From Chloroflexota bacterium (lineage in GTDB: Bacteria; Chloroflexota; Dehalococcoidia; Lucifugimonadales; JADFKI01): a stretch of DNA of 12,945 nucleotides. Shown here in pieces: positions 1-8,125 of the stretch; position 1 is the first letter of the stretch, and every line of letters begins with the position of its first letter. The stretch lies in NCBI GenBank assembly GCA_027623195.1, contig JAQBUT010000046.1, positions 1 through 12,945 of the forward strand. Direction: 5' to 3'. A program made the translations under genes and the position numbers. The notes below the pieces were generated by a model. That model ran no database searches and was not told the DNA's origin. It worked only from the letters and a program-made list of their open reading frames with translations.

Positions 1-1790
1 ACCAGGTAGGTTCGACGCAAAGATTATCACAGTCGGCCCGCACCTGGAAATCAGGGAGCGGGCTTTTTCATTCTACGAAAAGGTAACGATTACGGAACTC
101 ACAGCCCCGGCAGAGTCCGGGCAGGAGACAGATTATGATGGAATTCAAAGAGCAGGACGGCAAGCCGATTCACGTGGCAATCTACTGCCGGGTGTCGTCC
201 GAGGAACAGCGAGACAACCAGACCATAGAGACCCAGGTGAACTACGCTAAGAAATGGATAGAACTCCAAGAGCTCAGCCGCAAGCATTACTTAGTCTATG
301 ACTTTTATAAGGATGACGGCGTATCCGGCACCATAGCCCTTGCCAAACGCCCCGAAGGCAAACGCCTTTTGGCAGACGCAGAGGCAGGTCGTTTCTCAAT
401 CGTGCTGGCCTACAAGATAGACCGGATGGGACGAGACCCAAGGGACATCCTTAACTCCGCACACAGACTTGACCAGTTGAGTGTGGGCCTAAAGAGCCTC
501 ACGGAGGATTTTGACCTCACATCACCATCGGGTCGATTCATGTTCAACATCTTCGCGGCATCGGCGGGATTCGCCAGAGACACCCAGGTTGAACGCTCCG
601 TCGAAGGCACTAACTACTGGGCCAAAGAAGGTGTATGGCTTGGCGGTATCGTACCTTACGGGTACGTAGTGGAAGGCCGGAAGAAGCAGGCCCGAATCGC
701 AGTTAATGATTCTTCCTTGCGGGATATGGACCTGTCAGAGGCAGATGTCGTACGACTCATGTACAGGCTGTTGACTCAAGATGGGTGGTCCTGCGTGAAA
801 ATCGCCGAACACCTCAATGCTCTCGGTATACCTACGGCCTACACCAGAGACGAACGGGCCGTGAAGCGAACCACACCAGAAGGGAAACGTAAGACCAACA
901 CAGCAGGGGTATGGCGACCATCGCGTGTGAGAAACTTGTTGGTGAACTCCGTATATAAGGGGGAGCACGTTTACGGTAAACGTAGTAAGAAACAGCGGTC
1001 CACGATATCCCGTGAAGTGCCACATATAGTCACGTCAGATACTTGGGACGCCGCTCAAAAGACTCTCCGAAATAACCAGATAATGTCCAGCAAGAACGCA
1101 AAGCGGCAGTACCTGTTGCGTGGCGCAGTCCGCTGCGGCATCTGCGGACTGAACTATTCAGGCTCTCAAGTAAAAAGGGCCAAGGGTAACATCCACATCT
1201 ACTACAAGTGCAACGGCAAGCAGCCTTTCCGCGGACGCCTGGAAGGCAAATGCCCCAGTGCTTACGTGGAGGCTGAGCGACTAGAGTCCGAAATTTGGAA
1301 AGATATCGAAGGCTTCATAAGAAACCCAGGAGAGGTGATTGAGACACTGGCCTACAGGCTCAAAGACCACGAGCAAGTGACGGAGAATGCTGCAGTGGAC
1401 CGTGACGTTATAAATGCGGCGTTGAATCGCAAGCAGTCAGAGAAAGACATTGTGATTGACCTTTACCGCCGGGATCGCATCACCCTACCCGATCTGGAGC
1501 GACAGCTTGAGAAGATATCCGCCGAGGAACGGGAACTCAACGAACGAATTGTTGAATTGGATAGTCAGGCCGGAATCCAGGAGGATTACTCGTCCCGTCT
1601 TTCCCAGTCTCGTGAGCTACTAAGTGAACTGGGGAGCCGATTAGACGAAGGCGTTTCTTGGGATGTCAAGCGGCAACTGGTTGAGACTCTAGTGCTGTCT
1701 GTAAACGTTGAAACAGTGCTTGAGGGCCAGAGCCGCAAACCCAACGTGACCGTGACATACGCCTTTCCTGGTAGCGCAGATAACCGCACG
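1..1790. mobile_element. End of an integrative element (genomic island/prophage/IME) inserted in comM; it continues left of the window
   Basis: Terminal serine integrase abutting a host gene that is interrupted at a conserved motif. Confidence 0.85.
2..250 (+). CDS. 3' part of a putative element-encoded ORF upstream of and overlapping the integrase (5'-truncated by the window)
   Basis: Frame 2 is stop-free from the window start to TAA at 248-250 (PGRFDAKIITVGPHLEIRERAFSFYEKV...GELR*). The other + frames stop at 7-9 and 84-86. No start codon is visible and no family is recognised. Confidence 0.4.
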   Translation, partial: PGRFDAKIITVGPHLEIRERAFSFYEKVTITELTAPAESGQETDYDGIQRAGRQADSRGNLLPGVVRGTARQPDHRDPGELR

Positions 1791-1820
1791 GGCACGGATT
1801 CATGGCAGCAACCAGCATGA
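135..1820 (+). CDS. Large serine recombinase (serine integrase): resolvase catalytic domain, recombinase domain, zinc ribbon and coiled coil
   Basis: [11 protein letters not shown] with catalytic Ser21, [21 protein letters not shown], zinc ribbon [12 protein letters not shown]...YYKC...C and a long coiled coil. RBS AGGAG at 123-127. Confidence 0.96.
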
Positions 1821-2871
1821 AATTGGCTGGGAAGCTAGTTGTGCCCTGTGCTCGGCTTATGGTGACCATCTTGTCCTCCAATGGCTGGCGCAGTACCTCA
1901 AGCACCGTGTGGCCGAACTCCGGCAACTCGTCGAGAAACAGCACGCCTCTGTGGCTCAACGTCACCTCTCCCGGCCTGGGCATCCTCCCGCCGCCAACCA
2001 GCCCTGCGTTCGAGATCGTGTAGTGAGGCGCTCGGAATGGCCTTTGCGATATTAACGGCGAGGAGTTCGGCAGCAGACCGCCCACGCTGTATATCTTCGT
2101 GACGTCCAGCGCCTCGTTCCTGGTTAGCCGAGGCAGCACAGATGGCAAGGCGCGAGCCAGCAGCGTTTTGCCGCTACCAGGAGGACCGCTCATGAGCAGG
2201 TTATGACCCCCTGAGGCCGCCACCTCTAATGCTCGCTTGGCATGTTCCTGACCGCGAACGTCGGCGAGGTCGGTGTCCCTGCCGGGGTTGATGCCAGCGC
2301 CGTTAAGAGGGTGCGCGTCCTCTACAAGCGCGTTGACATCGGCCTTGATTGGGAGAATGACATCATCTCCCCTAAAGTGGGAAATGAGTTGATTGAGGTG
2401 TCCCACCCCGTATACGTCAATACCGTCTACCAGTGCCGCCTCCGCAGCATCCAGCGCCGGCACGAAGACGCATTGGAATCCTTCGTCTCGGGCCACTGCA
2501 ACCATTGGCAGAATGCCGTTTGTGTGTCTTAGTCCGCCGTCCAGCGAAAGCTCGCCCAGAAAAAGGGCTGACTCTGGAATGGATGGGACCTGCCCCGAGC
2601 TAAGCAGCACGGATATGGCGATTGGCAGATCGTAAGCGGGCCCGGCTTTACGCAGGTCTGCCGGGGCAAGATTGACGGTGACGCGTCTCATGGGGAATTC
2701 GCCGCCCGAGTTTCGGATGGCGGCCCGGACGCGTTCGCGTGCCTCCTGAACGGCAGTGTCAGGCAATCCTACGATGGTGAAAGCGGGGAGCCCAGGGGAG
2801 ATGTCTACTTCGACCTGGACGATGAATCCATCCAGGCCAACCACGGCACACGTTGTGGATTTCGCCAGCAT
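1666..2871 (-). pseudogene. comM: 5' portion of comM / YifB-family Mg-chelatase-like AAA+ ATPase, interrupted after residue ~364, with a 37-aa non-native tail
   Basis: [36 protein letters not shown], Walker [16 protein letters not shown], Walker [27 protein letters not shown]. It lacks the usual downstream ISGPLLDRID segment and the C-terminal domain. Confidence 0.93.
1770..1805. other. Hybrid attachment site (attL/attR); crossover probably within ~1778-1797
   Basis: ComM-like sequence stops after N-P-C-P-C-G-Y (minus-strand codons 1800..1780). Beyond this the reading is integrase antisense (LRYQERR...). The exact core dinucleotide cannot be fixed without the other junction. Confidence 0.8.
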
Positions 2872-2907
2872 AATTGTGACCCGATGATGTACAAATCCTT
2901 GGCCGCT

Positions 2908-2936
2908 ATACTAAGTGTCGGCTAGGCGGGAGTCAA
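2908..2936 (-). promoter_or_regulatory. Sigma70-type promoter of comM
   Basis: TTGACT (2936-2931), 17-bp spacer, TAGTAT (2913-2908); 36 nt upstream of the ATG. Confidence 0.6.
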
Positions 2937-3029
2937 CAGATCATATTTTGCGCCTGAATGGAGGGGGGGCTATTCAGCAAGGGATAGCGTAGGGAATCGT
3001 AGTAGAAATGGCGCTAAAATGAGGCAACC

Positions 3030-3320: not shown

Positions 3321-5648
3321 CTATTTTCCACTAGTTTCACCCAGGCTTTCCTTCAACCCAGCCAACCTAATTTTGGCCTCTGCAACCGCCGCGCTATCGA
3401 ACGGATTCGGGTCGTACGCAGCTTTCCAGGCATTCGACCGAAGCCATGCCATGTGTGCACCCTCGGCGCGTTCCTTACCTATGACTGGGCGGCTGTACTC
3501 GCCCAATGTCTGAGCAGGTTGGCGTGGCGGAAATCCGTGCTTCCCCAGAAGCTTTTCCGCCTTGGAGTAGATCTTAAGCATGTCCTGCCGTCCATCGCCG
3601 GGTATGCCGGAGTACGCCATTCTTGGCCTACCAGAGCGCAGCAGTGGCGCGAAACGCCAAATGGCGAACGCTGCCAACATAAGGCTTGCTATTGTTATGG
3701 CAGGACCCAGTATCTTGATGGCAGTCTGGGCTGCATCGCCGTTCAACAGGTCGCCTATCATCTCGGGAGAGGAGCGCACGGAGCTGTAAATGTCCTCCGA
3801 CAGGTTTGCGCTAAATATGGCCCCCACGGGCGGCGAGTCGAAGAAGGTTCCTCCCTCTCCAAACCCGGCGGTGGACGGCCTCGGCGCACTGTCGAATGGA
3901 ACCCATCCCGAGTCGCTAAAGAATACCTCCGCCCACGCATGTTGATCGCTAGCGCGCACCATGTAGGTGCCAGAGAGCGGATCGAACTGCCCAGGCAAGT
4001 AGCCAGTCACCATTCGCGCTGGTATGCCCGCGCCTCTGGCCAGGAGCACCGTCGCCGTAGCGATGTCCATTCCTGTGCCTTTGCCCTGGGACTCTATGAA
4101 AACTGAAGGTTCTTGCGTCAACGCCATCTGATCGGTGGCCGTTAAGTCGTACTCATAGTTTCTGTCTATGTACGTGACGATGCGGCGCATCCGGTCCACA
4201 TCGGCGAAGAAGCCTCCAGTTATTTGTGACGCCACCGATTCTATACTGTCAGAATTCGGAGGCATCTGATGGTAGCGGTATTCCAGGCGATTGGCTGGAT
4301 TGGATTTACGAAGGACGCTCAAGCTGAAGTCCGGTAGCGCAGAGATCACCCGATACGTCGAGCCAGCGTCAATCTTACGAGAGCCGTCTTCCGCCAGTGG
4401 AATCGAAGCCACCATGGGTGAGTAACCGCTAAAGAACTCCCCTTCACCTTGAGGCTGTTTCATGAAGAAAGTCTGGTTGTAGAGCGGTCCGGACTGGATA
4501 TTTTTGGGTTGGGGCGCGGCATACACCGCCCTGGAGCCCCCAGATCTTCGGTTGAACCAAGCAGTGCCGTCCTCGTGCCAGATACCATCCGCGAACCTGT
4601 CATATGCTTTGTCGCGCCAGTAGGTCAAAACGGGGCTTCGGACCTGCATAATCAGAGTGTCCTCTGCCGAAGGCGCCGTCGTCTCGCTGGGGCTAATGTT
4701 ACCTGCGCCGACCTCCGACCCCTGCCCCGTGCCGATACCGCGTTGACCACCCTCGCCCGATTCCTGCCCAAGCGTCGGCGATTCCGGTAAATCCGAGTTT
4801 TCCGTTTGAGTCGTGTCATTGGGAGATTGGGCGGGACCATTCGTAGGGTTTGTACTTCCTTCTTCCTCTGGAGTTCCGGCAGTAACAGGCAACGCCGAAC
4901 CAAGAGACTGCTGCTCAAACGAGACCTCGGGGATGTTGATGCGGTCGCTGGCCCTCATGGGCAGGACGGCTCCATGAGCGTCGTTTATGGGATCGACAAG
5001 CTGTTTCGGCAGCAGAATAAATATAGCGGCGGAGGTTAGCATGGAAGCGACGAACACACCGGTCCAGAAAAACCCAAATCCGAAACGATTTTGGAACCAG
5101 CGGACATCGGCGGTCTTCACCTGATCCAGCAGGAAGGATAGGGCCAGAAACGAGAGCAGCAGAGTGGTATAGCCTGTCAAAAATATTACGAAGGTTATGT
5201 CCAGGGCCTGCTGACTAACGAAGAAGAAAATAGCGCCGCTTACGATGATACTGGCGTACAGTCCCCCGCGACTTCTCATCTCGAATGACGCTATGCCCTG
5301 GAAAAGTATGAGGAAGTACGCGATGGGCAGCCAATCGCCGTTGACGGCCTTCATTACGGAGGCAGGCACCAGCATTAGTGAGCCCAGTAACGCCAGCGCG
5401 ATTATGCCTGTCCTGACGCGGGATTGGAGTGACCTGAATACCCAGCTGAATACGTGGCCGGCGGTTAGAAGCAAGCCACCGCCAAACCAGATCCAAAGTG
5501 GGCTGCCTACCCATGCCATAGACGCGGCCACCCACCAGCTCATCAGCAACACGATGAAATGGAGCGAAGGGCTTTCATCCCCCTTCTTTATTAGGGAGCC
5601 GTTTATCAGCTCTTTCATGGGCCGAATGTCTCTGAAAGCGTTGGTCAT
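3321..5648 (-). CDS. Membrane transglutaminase-like protein (TgpA-type: N-terminal TM bundle, transglutaminase-like core, C-terminal TM plus DUF4129-like tail); catalytic Cys absent
   Basis: Multiple hydrophobic helices, YWRDKAYDRF, LARGAGIPARMVTGYLPG, HAWAEVF, GWVPFD, and a C-terminal RQPAQTLGEY...AAY. Third gene of a MoxR-DUF58 operon. The start could alternatively be M11. Confidence 0.88.
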   Translation of the reverse strand: MTNAFRDIRPMKELINGSLIKKGDESPSLHFIVLLMSWWVAASMAWVGSPLWIWFGGGLLLTAGHVFSWVFRSLQSRVRTGIIALALLGSLMLVPASVMKAVNGDWLPIAYFLILFQGIASFEMRSRGGLYASIIVSGAIFFFVSQQALDITFVIFLTGYTTLLLSFLALSFLLDQVKTADVRWFQNRFGFGFFWTGVFVASMLTSAAIFILLPKQLVDPINDAHGAVLPMRASDRINIPEVSFEQQSLGSALPVTAGTPEEEGSTNPTNGPAQSPNDTTQTENSDLPESPTLGQESGEGGQRGIGTGQGSEVGAGNISPSETTAPSAEDTLIMQVRSPVLTYWRDKAYDRFADGIWHEDGTAWFNRRSGGSRAVYAAPQPKNIQSGPLYNQTFFMKQPQGEGEFFSGYSPMVASIPLAEDGSRKIDAGSTYRVISALPDFSLSVLRKSNPANRLEYRYHQMPPNSDSIESVASQITGGFFADVDRMRRIVTYIDRNYEYDLTATDQMALTQEPSVFIESQGKGTGMDIATATVLLARGAGIPARMVTGYLPGQFDPLSGTYMVRASDQHAWAEVFFSDSGWVPFDSAPRPSTAGFGEGGTFFDSPPVGAIFSANLSEDIYSSVRSSPEMIGDLLNGDAAQTAIKILGPAITIASLMLAAFAIWRFAPLLRSGRPRMAYSGIPGDGRQDMLKIYSKAEKLLGKHGFPPRQPAQTLGEYSRPVIGKERAEGAHMAWLRSNAWKAAYDPNPFDSAAVAEAKIRLAGLKESLGETSGK

Positions 5649-5668
5649 GCTAATTGGATAACGTCCAT

Positions 5669-6898
5669 TTAAGAAACCGCAGCGGCTTCGGGTTCTGCCG
5701 CATGGTTTATTTGTCTGTCACTCAACACCGCCAGGGCCTGCGCGGCCTCGCCCGGCCCACATTCGACGACTCGCGCCCCGGCTTTTACAAGGTCTGAAAG
5801 GGCATTGGGCGAAGCCCCGTTCGTGCTAAAGCCAGTAAGGACTATTGCCGAAACCCTGCGCTGTCCTGAAGCCAGTCTTGTGGCTTCGCGAAGGCCAGCG
5901 CTGTCAGAGTCCTGCACTATGATCAACACCGCCGAGAACGGAGCCACAACCCCCAGCATTTCGGGCAGCGACCACTTTTCTTTGGGTTTCATCAACGCCA
6001 GGTTGCGCAACAGCGCGTTGGGGTCGGTAGTCTCCTCATTTATGCCGCCAGCCACCAGCCTAACAATGCCTGCGGATCGACAGACATAATCGCCAACGCT
6101 GGCTGCCAGAGAAATAGCGTGCTCCAGGGCTTCGTCATTACCGCCCGGAATTCGTTTTATGTCAAAGCAAATTGTTATAGCACTGTCTGGAGTTTTCTCA
6201 AACTCTTTCACCTGTGGCTGGTTTGTGCGGGCGGAGTTTTTCCAGTGGACGTGGTGCCACGGATCGCCTGAAACGTAGTTTCGAGATCCGCTGGCCTGCT
6301 CACCAACACGTGATTTCAGCGAATAGTTGGAGGTAGTGCCGGAGTTGTCCAGAAGCTCCAACCCTTCTACGGCGTGGACCTTCGGTAATACCAGCACTTC
6401 TGTAGGATTGCTGATGGACTTCTGTCTTCGGAAAATACCGAAAGGTACGCTGGTTTCCAACTTAAGGTCTGAAAGATTATATAATCCGCGTCTCAGGAAG
6501 CTGCAGTGGGTTGTGGAGGCGTATGTGCCATTGCGGCTTAACCAGGCGACGAACATCCGTTGCTTCTCCGCCTGAATCCCCAGTTTGTCGAAATCGTAGG
6601 AGGCGCCGACGAAGACCGCAGGGAGTATGGCACGGTTCTCCATAAGAGTTTCCAGGTCGCATTCGTCGCCTGCCATAGGGCCTTCGTAAAGGCCTTTGCC
6701 ATGCCAGCCTGTTATCCGGCGTCGAATACTAATGTTTCCTATTGCCAGCCAGGGCAAGACCATGGAGATGATTATGATGCCCCACAGGACGGCGTCGAAT
6801 AGCAAAAGCCATCCAACACGGGTGAACCCCGCAAGGGTAAAGAGCATCACTGCGACTATGATCAGACCTATGCCGCGAGGTCGGACCGCTATAGGCAT
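5669..6898 (-). CDS. DUF58 family protein (MoxR-associated, degenerate vWA-like) with N-terminal TM helices
   Basis: RRGLY...PFGIF...VLVLPKV, RNYVSGDPWHHVHWKNSAR, VKEFE, LEHAISLAAS. Lies 9 nt downstream of moxR with a GGAG RBS. Confidence 0.9.
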   Translation of the reverse strand: MPIAVRPRGIGLIIVAVMLFTLAGFTRVGWLLLFDAVLWGIIIISMVLPWLAIGNISIRRRITGWHGKGLYEGPMAGDECDLETLMENRAILPAVFVGASYDFDKLGIQAEKQRMFVAWLSRNGTYASTTHCSFLRRGLYNLSDLKLETSVPFGIFRRQKSISNPTEVLVLPKVHAVEGLELLDNSGTTSNYSLKSRVGEQASGSRNYVSGDPWHHVHWKNSARTNQPQVKEFEKTPDSAITICFDIKRIPGGNDEALEHAISLAASVGDYVCRSAGIVRLVAGGINEETTDPNALLRNLALMKPKEKWSLPEMLGVVAPFSAVLIIVQDSDSAGLREATRLASGQRRVSAIVLTGFSTNGASPNALSDLVKAGARVVECGPGEAAQALAVLSDRQINHAAEPEAAAVS

Positions 6899-6907
6899 GG
6901 GATACTC

Positions 6908-7888
6908 CTAAACAGGCACCGCGATCTTATCGAGAATCTCCTGGACGATTTCGCGGTTGTCCATGTCGGAGCCTGGATGGGAAGCGATGCGGTGAGGCAA
7001 AACCAAAGGGGCTACCTTTTTGACATCCTCGGGTATGAGGAAGTCCCTGCCCTCGAACGCCGCCCAGCCCTGGGCCGCGCTCTGAAGCAGAACTGTTCCT
7101 CTGGGGCTAACGCCCCGAGATACCTGCGGATGCTCTCTGGTAGCCTGGGATATGTTGACCAGGTATTCTTTCACAGGTAAAGCGACCTGTATCTGCCTCA
7201 CGGTGGCTTGCATGGCCAGAACGTCCTGCGTGGTCAGCACGGCTGAGGTGCTCTTAAAACCATGCTCCGCTCGGGACAGAATCTCAATCTCCTGCGCCGG
7301 CGACGGCAGGCCAAGGCTCATGCGAATCAGGAACCTGTCTAGCTGTGAGTCCGGCAGCGGGAATATTCCGTGGCTCTCCACCATGTTCTGAGTAGCAACA
7401 ACCATGAAGGGCCTTGGTAGAGGATAGACGTCGCCGTCGGCGCTGACCTGGAACTCGGCCATGGCCTCCAGCAGCGCTGCCTGCGTGCGTGGCCCCGTCC
7501 TGTTAATCTCGTCTGCTATGAGAACGTTCGAGAATACAGGCCCGGGCTTGAACTCGAAGTGGTTCTGCTGCATGTTGAAAATAGATGTGCCGGTAATGTC
7601 GCTGGGAAGCAGGTCGGGCGTGCACTGCACTCGGGAGAATCGGCCCTGGACGGACTGAGCCAAGGTCTTGGCCATCAGGGTCTTTCCTACACCTGGCGTG
7701 TCTTCCAATAGAATATGGCCCTGCGAGACCAGTCCCAACAAGACATAGCGTATGGACTCTTCTGATATAACCACGGAACTGGATATGTTGCTTACCAGAG
7801 CCTGTAGGAGTTGCTGGAAGCGTTGCTGGTCTAGCTGACCAACAGGCGCGCCGCTCTCCGTGTTCATCACCTGCGTTGACGTGGACAT
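6908..7888 (-). CDS. moxR: MoxR family AAA+ ATPase
   Basis: GHILLEDTPGVGKT, RVQCTPDLLPSDITG, LIADEINR, QAALLEAMAE, QLDRF, GVSPRG. Start reassigned from 7954 to the ATG at 7888, which is preceded by GAGG. Confidence 0.95.
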   Translation of the reverse strand: MSTSTQVMNTESGAPVGQLDQQRFQQLLQALVSNISSSVVISEESIRYVLLGLVSQGHILLEDTPGVGKTLMAKTLAQSVQGRFSRVQCTPDLLPSDITGTSIFNMQQNHFEFKPGPVFSNVLIADEINRTGPRTQAALLEAMAEFQVSADGDVYPLPRPFMVVATQNMVESHGIFPLPDSQLDRFLIRMSLGLPSPAQEIEILSRAEHGFKSTSAVLTTQDVLAMQATVRQIQVALPVKEYLVNISQATREHPQVSRGVSPRGTVLLQSAAQGWAAFEGRDFLIPEDVKKVAPLVLPHRIASHPGSDMDNREIVQEILDKIAVPV

Positions 7889-7923
7889 CTGTCTGTCCTC
7901 ACTGAAGAAGGTATAATCGAACG

Positions 7924-8125
7924 GCTTTTCGCCATCCGGACAAGTCCAGGTCAACCGGCGTAACCCCCGCTGACTGCCTGGATCAAGTCATTCATCTTCT
8001 ATGTTATCGAGGTGGGGCGGTATTTCCACGTAGTCGATACGTGACTTGATAGGCGATAGCACCCACTGTGGAAACATGGGCATACAGTAGGTCGTTACGC
8101 GGTAAACGAGGTGTTCGTTTCGTAT
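7924..8125 (+). ncRNA. Candidate structured ncRNA, possibly 6S RNA (ssrS)
   Basis: Perfect TATAAT at 7912-7917. Nested stems 7954-7964/8094-8103, 7976-7990/8042-8054, 8005-8010/8034-8039 and 8012-8017/8024-8029. GNRA-capped hairpin 8062-8080. 3' hairpin 8104-8120. Length about 190-200 nt; the ends are approximate. Confidence 0.4.

Follow-up and report, generated by a model that had tools for sequence, protein, structure and literature searches.

Serine integrases are prized as genome-engineering tools. The tyrosine integrase of myxophage Mx8 (IntP/IntX) has its attP inside int, and integration changes the C-terminus of the enzyme, replacing a long C-terminal segment and changing its activity. 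For the repressor of mycobacteriophage BPs, integration is said to remove a C-terminal degradation tag. The attP of BPs lies inside the repressor gene and immunity is integration dependent, according to the accessible text of the report (PMC4557955), and the accessible parts of two papers on the "suicidal" tyrosine integrases of the SSV type, from archaeal viruses, describe an att site inside the integrase gene, which is split and inactivated by integration (PMC8371274, PMC5861418). Genes of the comM type are the commonest natural target of serine integrases in the accessible text of Durrant et al. 2022, where 12.4% of the predicted site-specific large serine recombinases (LSRs) target the Mg-chelatase-like/comM family (PMC10083194), and sr1WO of phage WO integrates in a Mg-chelatase-like/comM gene as described in the accessible part of its report (PMC9203015). 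Supplements aside, the accessible text of these two papers makes no mention of a crossover inside the integrase ORF or of state-dependent integrases, and our search of the literature on comM-targeting serine integrases and on attP within the integrase gene found no published description of an LSR ORF that crosses attP. LSR elements that target comM are already published.

The window, by which we mean the whole analysed stretch of 12,945 nucleotides (positions 1-12945 of contig C8, from a genome that is 87% complete), opens with element DNA 5' of int (1..134, + strand); the contig starts here, and the remaining element is outside the window. The integrase gene, int, follows at 135..1820 (+), and its ORF and translation give, in the integrated state, a large serine recombinase of 561 codons and 561 aa. 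Pfam assigns residues 14-168 to the N-terminal resolvase catalytic domain (Resolvase, PF00239, 1.4e-29), followed by matches to Recombinase (PF07508, 1.6e-18) and Zn_ribbon_recom (PF13408, 2.8e-11), and finds no HTH or repressor domain in Int. The motif R19-V20-S21 is invariant across 39 aligned relatives and presumably contains the nucleophile serine, and the zinc-ribbon cysteines C334, C337, C359, and C373 are likewise invariant among the aligned relatives. The AlphaFold2 (AF2) model of Int (mean pLDDT 80.2) has long helices at 399-445 and 451-503, which fit an inserted coiled coil, and a last strand at 533-542; residues 547-561 fall below a pLDDT of 50. The catalytic domain, the Recombinase and zinc-ribbon domains with their coiled coil, and the dyad attP described below together identify Int as a large serine recombinase.

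To the right of int, on the opposite strand, lies the 5' part of comM (1793..2871, -), comprising codons 1-359 and the TG of codon 360, as assigned by Pfam and by the join with contig C58 of the same genome. Pfam matches ChlI (1.9e-45) and Mg_chelatase (7.5e-78), the latter covering profile positions 1-173 of 207 and cut at 173. The comM ORF as read in the window extends over 1666..2871, but its translation is unrelated to ComM once past ...CPCGY; the segment 1666..1792 (-) is the cut comM frame running, without meaning, into the element, antisense to the 3' end of int. The only match to Mg_chelatase_C in the whole genome is on C58, about 1 kb from the contig end, where the comM frame picks up again at ...CPCGYYSDP... 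The far end of the element accounts for the remaining ∼990 nt of C58 (17179-18169). Sequence comparison of the two junctions gives a 15-bp identity, ATAACCGCACGGGCA, at 1780..1794 of the window and 17164-17178 of C58. When the host flanks are joined in silico, an uninterrupted ComM of 516 aa results, and the gene is restored exactly, as expected of a crossover that leaves no target duplication; both comM halves are undamaged, and the insertion is inside comM, with the gene halves flanking the element. In enzyme class and target, in the splitting of comM with its halves on either side, and in the rebuilding of attB by flank joining, the locus resembles the LSRs and sr1WO of the published work, as far as the accessible text of those papers describes them (PMC10083194, PMC9203015).

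Six public runs, none of them listed as an RNA run, contain the whole stretch or about half of it, and four of these were compared over positions 1000-3000 of the window. Contigs from X3 and X4, which belong to another study, match the window from 1780 rightwards and continue leftwards with exactly the comM 3' letters of C58. Since the letters left of 1780 are those of the comM 3' side, these contigs represent the empty site as predicted by the in silico join, and the empty comM site is the only one found in X3 and X4. In X1, which may be the sample of origin, an attL contig (1000-1809) occurs alongside a host contig that starts with 15 letters of the attB type. We note that the two contigs have depths of 15.5 (attL) and 29.5 (host), which are contig depths and not shares of cells. 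The comM insertion is polymorphic in nature. With comM found both interrupted and uninterrupted in natural samples, the element looks still mobile. We regard it as very improbable that the element is a dead remnant or an artefact of assembly, one whose excised form never exists and whose borrowed stop would be the scar of an old insertion. Such a reading would suit a window that starts inside the element, in a genome 87% complete in which the element is spread over two or more contigs, but the int ORF shows no damage and retains every residue that is invariant in the family, the comM halves give a perfect frame on joining, and the exact empty site in other runs, together with both states in X1, points to recent mobility.

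The position of the crossover was approached through the symmetry of attP and through the junctions of relatives. In the attP rebuilt in silico, complementarity is best when centred on CA 1793-1794, with 17/24 arm positions pairing, a score reached by 0/20000 shuffles. The CA is, read on the other strand, the TG of the first Cys codon in the comM motif N-P-C-P-C-G, and it lies within the 15-bp identity. For the relatives, we mapped junctions by codon-anchored alignment in place of a naive longest-common-substring core search, which returned chance matches; with this mapping, the same TG is common to attL and attR in 24/24 junction pairs. The rebuilt attPs of the family (n = 22) have on average 15.5/24 complementary positions around the TG centre. 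The dyad and the 24/24 sharing of TG place the crossover within codon 554 of the 561 codons of int, and we infer that the Int attP would be cleaved at CA 1793-1794, 12 residues past the last predicted strand of the AF2 model. As a separate observation, the 22 rebuilt attB sites have a mean of 5/24 at the same centre, which is about chance, so the attP/attB pair is unusually lopsided for a serine integrase.

A crossover at CA 1793-1794 divides the end of int in two. The dyad analysis assigns 1769..1792, coding for Int residues ∼545-553, to the P' arm of attP, the element-derived half-site, and 1779-1792 would accordingly be the element's own P' arm mimicking comM. Only 1795..1820 (+) would be host DNA: the rest of codon 554, codons 555-561, and the TGA at 1818-1820, antisense to F351-P359 of comM. 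The first-pass annotation had read the integrase tail at 1779-1820 as the reverse strand of comM codons and as host DNA. Translations of both strands bear out the first statement; host origin holds for 1795-1820, including the TGA, and has to be withdrawn for 1779-1792. Its placement of attP within the int ORF agrees with the crossover in codon 554 given by the dyad and the junction pairs.

The first-pass annotation had further proposed that the two states encode integrases with different C-termini, and that joining the element ends in silico and translating the attP form would reveal this. Joining the element flanks gives an excised-form Int of 569 aa, which reads ...NRTG followed by the 16 residues IRANNCATITKPVALR, read without a break from C58, and a stop. 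The C-terminus of Int thus has 8 aa in the integrated form and 16 aa in the in silico excised form, as had been anticipated. A duplicated comM segment that would make the two tails alike is not what we find, as the 15 nt of comM copied in the element (13 nt plus the 2-nt crossover) leave the two tails unequal. Taken together, these results suggest a scheme in which the LSR inserts the element into comM by a crossover in int codon 554, the integrated int closes with eight codons and the TGA of antisense comM, and, once the element has circularised, the gene would instead close with 16 different codons contributed by the far end of the element.

This arrangement can be set beside the known systems. 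Mx8 is like the window in having attP in the coding sequence of int, but its enzyme is a tyrosine integrase and the segment exchanged is long, against 8 and 16 residues, predicted to be disordered, here. In BPs, too, attP is in a coding sequence and integration alters the C-terminus of a protein; there the gene crossed is that of the repressor, whereas in the window it is that of the integrase, with no tag evident. Unlike the SSV-type enzymes, for which the accessible text of the reports describes int as split and inactivated (PMC8371274, PMC5861418), Int of the window keeps its catalytic and DNA-binding domains intact in both states.

The sequence of the integrated tail follows from the codons of comM. 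Read in antisense, F-M-L-V-A-A-M-N-P becomes [TKRM]-[DG]-S-[WSL*]-[QPRL]-[QPRL]-[PS]-[AT]-TGA, so the tail sequence and the position of the stop are dictated by host codon choice. Among 119 homologous proteins examined, a strict 8-aa antisense-comM ending is present in 26 and the motif occurs at other lengths in 30 more, which gives antisense-comM endings in at least 56/119 homologues; 9/119 carry a C-terminal tandem XRE-HTH extension of ∼150 aa, and 54/119 have other or truncated ends. The 26/119 homologues with the 8-aa antisense-comM tail, together with the restored 516-aa comM and the natural empty site, put the arrangement beyond chance. We also examined 160 related loci, half of them viral and half genomic (80 each). 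In 44/160 the end of int carries, as in the window, the antisense comM 5' part, and in 22/160 it carries the sense comM 3' part, in the opposite orientation; comM is elsewhere in the locus in 10/160, and 84/160 are without comM within the stretch covered. In sense-oriented insertions, the Int frame can enter the comM 3' part in frame and yield an Int-ComM-C fusion ORF, as in P0082 (698 aa, with precomputed Pfam matches PF01078 and PF13335) and in L143:3001-5133, which reads ...HGCPCGWHGDP... A scan of metagenomes with alignment A2 picked up generic serine-recombinase patterns and mostly distant matches, of which only L194-L210 were partly useful, and a metagenome scan with the window's single Int protein found no relative.

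We then consider the excised forms of the relatives. The far junctions of 24 integrated relatives were joined in silico; L106 was dropped and L130 set aside, leaving 22. L106/L181 were left out of the tail count because their far locus is an intact comM copy, and L130/L182 because comM-like sequence is present on both sides of attL. In L130/L182 (Clostridium ganghwense), a second comM piece is found further on, beyond the comM-like sequence flanking attL, and this arrangement may represent tandem or nested insertions. With the anomalous L130 left out, the integrated tails of the 22 relatives are 3-23 aa long. In 16/22 of the rebuilt excised forms, all from Bacillota, the frame continues for ∼140-165 aa into two XRE-type HTH domains, and the other 6/22 have short tails of 16-27 aa; these are L088, L090, L091, and L104 (Chloroflexota), L095 (Terriglobia), and L116, whose own int is interrupted. 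Contiguous HTH-fused ORFs also occur naturally in viral contigs and proteins (L007-L010, L037, L053, L078, P0066, and others), with two HTH_3 stretches by Pfam. L053, which is fused, and L052/L055, which have the same integrase with another tail, represent one enzyme in two states. The in silico joins and the natural viral contigs show that integration in the Bacillota cuts off the tandem XRE-HTH; in these relatives attP parts the recombinase core from the HTH domains.

The HTH-split relatives are 42-47% identical to Int, use the same comM site and the same TG crossover, and have the crossover ∼10 residues past the last zinc-ribbon strand. The window shares with them a crossover inside the int ORF; unlike theirs, its excised frame stops after 16 codons and does not enter an XRE-type HTH, and its far end is without an HTH. 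An in-frame "WEAN" string had suggested a relic HTH, which we discarded in the absence of a match to Pfam or to the HTH-tail HMM: past the excised-form stop, the next ORF has no Pfam family, and an HMM of 16 HTH tails found no match at E ≤ 10 in the six frames of C58 17101-18169. The fusion to a downstream frame that the first-pass annotation had envisaged does not occur in the window element, since the excised frame closes after 16 codons, although it is realised, as the tandem HTH, in 16/22 relatives.

Clades differ in where att lies with respect to the HTH, as judged from an Acidobacteriota clade (L120, L124, L156, L102, L114) and L162, in which the integrated Int retains its C-terminal tandem HTH and comM is 0.1-1.5 kb beyond the int stop, so that att follows the HTH there. 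A tree of 59 integrase cores, from which L108, L136, L088, and L095 were omitted because their HSP was short or contained a stop, shows two starred clades. In it, the window falls with the short-tail Chloroflexota L201, L090, and L091 (SH-aLRT 85); the sister clade of this group includes the Acidobacteriota HTH-native clade, and the other large clade consists of the Bacillota with HTH-bearing excised forms. As HTH-bearing lineages are found on both sides, the lineage of the window probably lost its HTH, on a tree whose root is not fixed. The family comparisons show, at the level of sequence, that the clade of comM-targeting serine integrases keeps attP within the 3' part of int, and this layout is inherited across the clade.

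Whether the exchange of tails does anything in the window element depends on the nature of the tails themselves. In addition to the low-confidence end of the integrated form, the tail of P0013, a natural excised-form relative, is modelled with a pLDDT of 24-29 over residues 555-590; such disorder predictions are silent on degradation tags or partner binding. Short excised-form tails can be as long as 34 aa among relatives that occur naturally in this form, and they are alike mainly in their first 6-8 residues, [IT]-R-A-x-N/x-C, which are within the 24-bp P arm. This conserved start mirrors the P' arm. Since the conserved tail residues sit in the P arm in this way, the constraint on them can be at the DNA level. 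At the same time, the tails of the window, P0013, P0051, and L091 have in common an I-R-A-x-x-C start and a hydrophobic pattern that runs a few residues past the half-site, to about residue 15, and four tails (window, L091, L088, and L201) are exactly 16 aa long; the partly conserved excised-form tails could reflect constraint on the peptide.

These observations bear on a working state sensor, in which the 16-aa and 8-aa tails would give Int different stability or directionality. The two states do encode different C-termini, the excised tails are partly conserved past the half-site with a recurrent length of 16 aa, there is a family precedent in the 16/22 relatives from which integration strips a whole HTH domain, and an analogy can be drawn with the BPs repressor and the C-terminal degradation tag it reportedly loses. 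Against this, both tails are predicted to be disordered, host codons determine the integrated tails, whose length varies between 3 and 23 aa, and the excised tails span 16-34 aa, with no relation to one another past ∼15 residues. We consider such a sensor unlikely. A narrower form, in which the tail of the excised Int (I-R-A-x-x-C-x-x-[IL]-x-x-P-[VI], a pattern that P0013 and P0051 also have) would act as a minimal state sensor present only on the circle and modulating the integrase, we likewise rate as quite improbable. If it were true, the tail sensor would, for example, favour integration or mark Int for turnover, insertion into comM would delete the sensor, and the integrases of the clade, with or without an HTH, would read their own integration state from the C-terminus.

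The reading that we hold to be the best explanation, and reasonably probable, is that the window has an inherited family layout and that the tail swap is here a neutral by-product. The sub-clade of Chloroflexota to which the window belongs is without the HTH, and integration would trade one short, predicted-disordered tail for another. The swap in this sub-clade is likely to be without functional effect, the family layout in a minimal or vestigial state, because the tails are predicted to be disordered, the integrated lengths range over 3-23 aa, there is no HTH relic, and the window groups with short-tail relatives; a regulatory role of the swap is plausible for the HTH-bearing relatives. The self-modifying switch put forward in the first-pass annotation thus goes unsupported for the window element, given the disordered tails, the variable integrated lengths, and a tail likeness limited to the P arm. 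That annotation had also held that random attP tails would speak against a switch, and the tails come close to this, agreement being mainly in P-arm residues, but they are not fully random, in view of the pattern that extends to about residue 15.

An effect at the RNA level would be independent of the tail peptides: the comM promoter would drive antisense transcripts across int and so lower its expression, an interference that would be absent on the circle. In the integrated state, int is without its own 3' UTR or terminator and faces the cut comM head-on, the cut comM frame overlaps the 3' end of int by 155 nt on the opposite strand, our scan finds no terminator-like site between int and comM, and a promoter-like site (9/12) is present upstream of comM at 2936-2908. 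However, the 5 promoter-like sites found do not significantly exceed the 2.4 ± 1.9 expected, and neither the promoter nor the terminator scan gives anything above shuffled expectation. In addition, the 22/160 oppositely oriented loci lack the convergence, which makes it not a general requirement. This explanation seems to us doubtful, and we retain the neutral by-product of an inherited layout as the preferred reading.

State-specific C-termini matter for choosing the protein to test and for locating attP inside the gene. Integrases of this clade that are annotated from integrated copies have host-derived C-termini and stops and are without the segment of the free form, and in many Bacillota relatives this missing segment is a whole DNA-binding domain. 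The window is mostly cautionary in this respect, as the same anatomy without an HTH suggests that the layout need not have a regulatory role in order to persist, and its HTH-less Int provides a natural minimal control for the HTH-bearing relatives.

The DNA on either side of the junctions can be described briefly. At the far end of the element (L001:2206-2547 and 2721-2882, corresponding to C58) are genes for an ArdA-like antirestriction protein (2.5e-12) and for a small protein whose ribbon-helix-helix matches are weak and fall below the Pfam cut-offs; a 58-aa ORF at L001:2046-2222 has no Pfam family. The ArdA-like and ribbon-helix-helix cargo hints at an element of the ICE/IME type more than at a phage. 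To the right of comM, the host operon at 3321-7954 of the window (-) is ordinary, with genes for a MoxR-type AAA ATPase (6908-7954, -), a DUF58 protein (5669-6898, -), and a transglutaminase-like protein (3321-5648, -). Beyond this operon are genes for an RNase_H_2-family protein, a molybdopterin oxidoreductase, and a putative cyclase.
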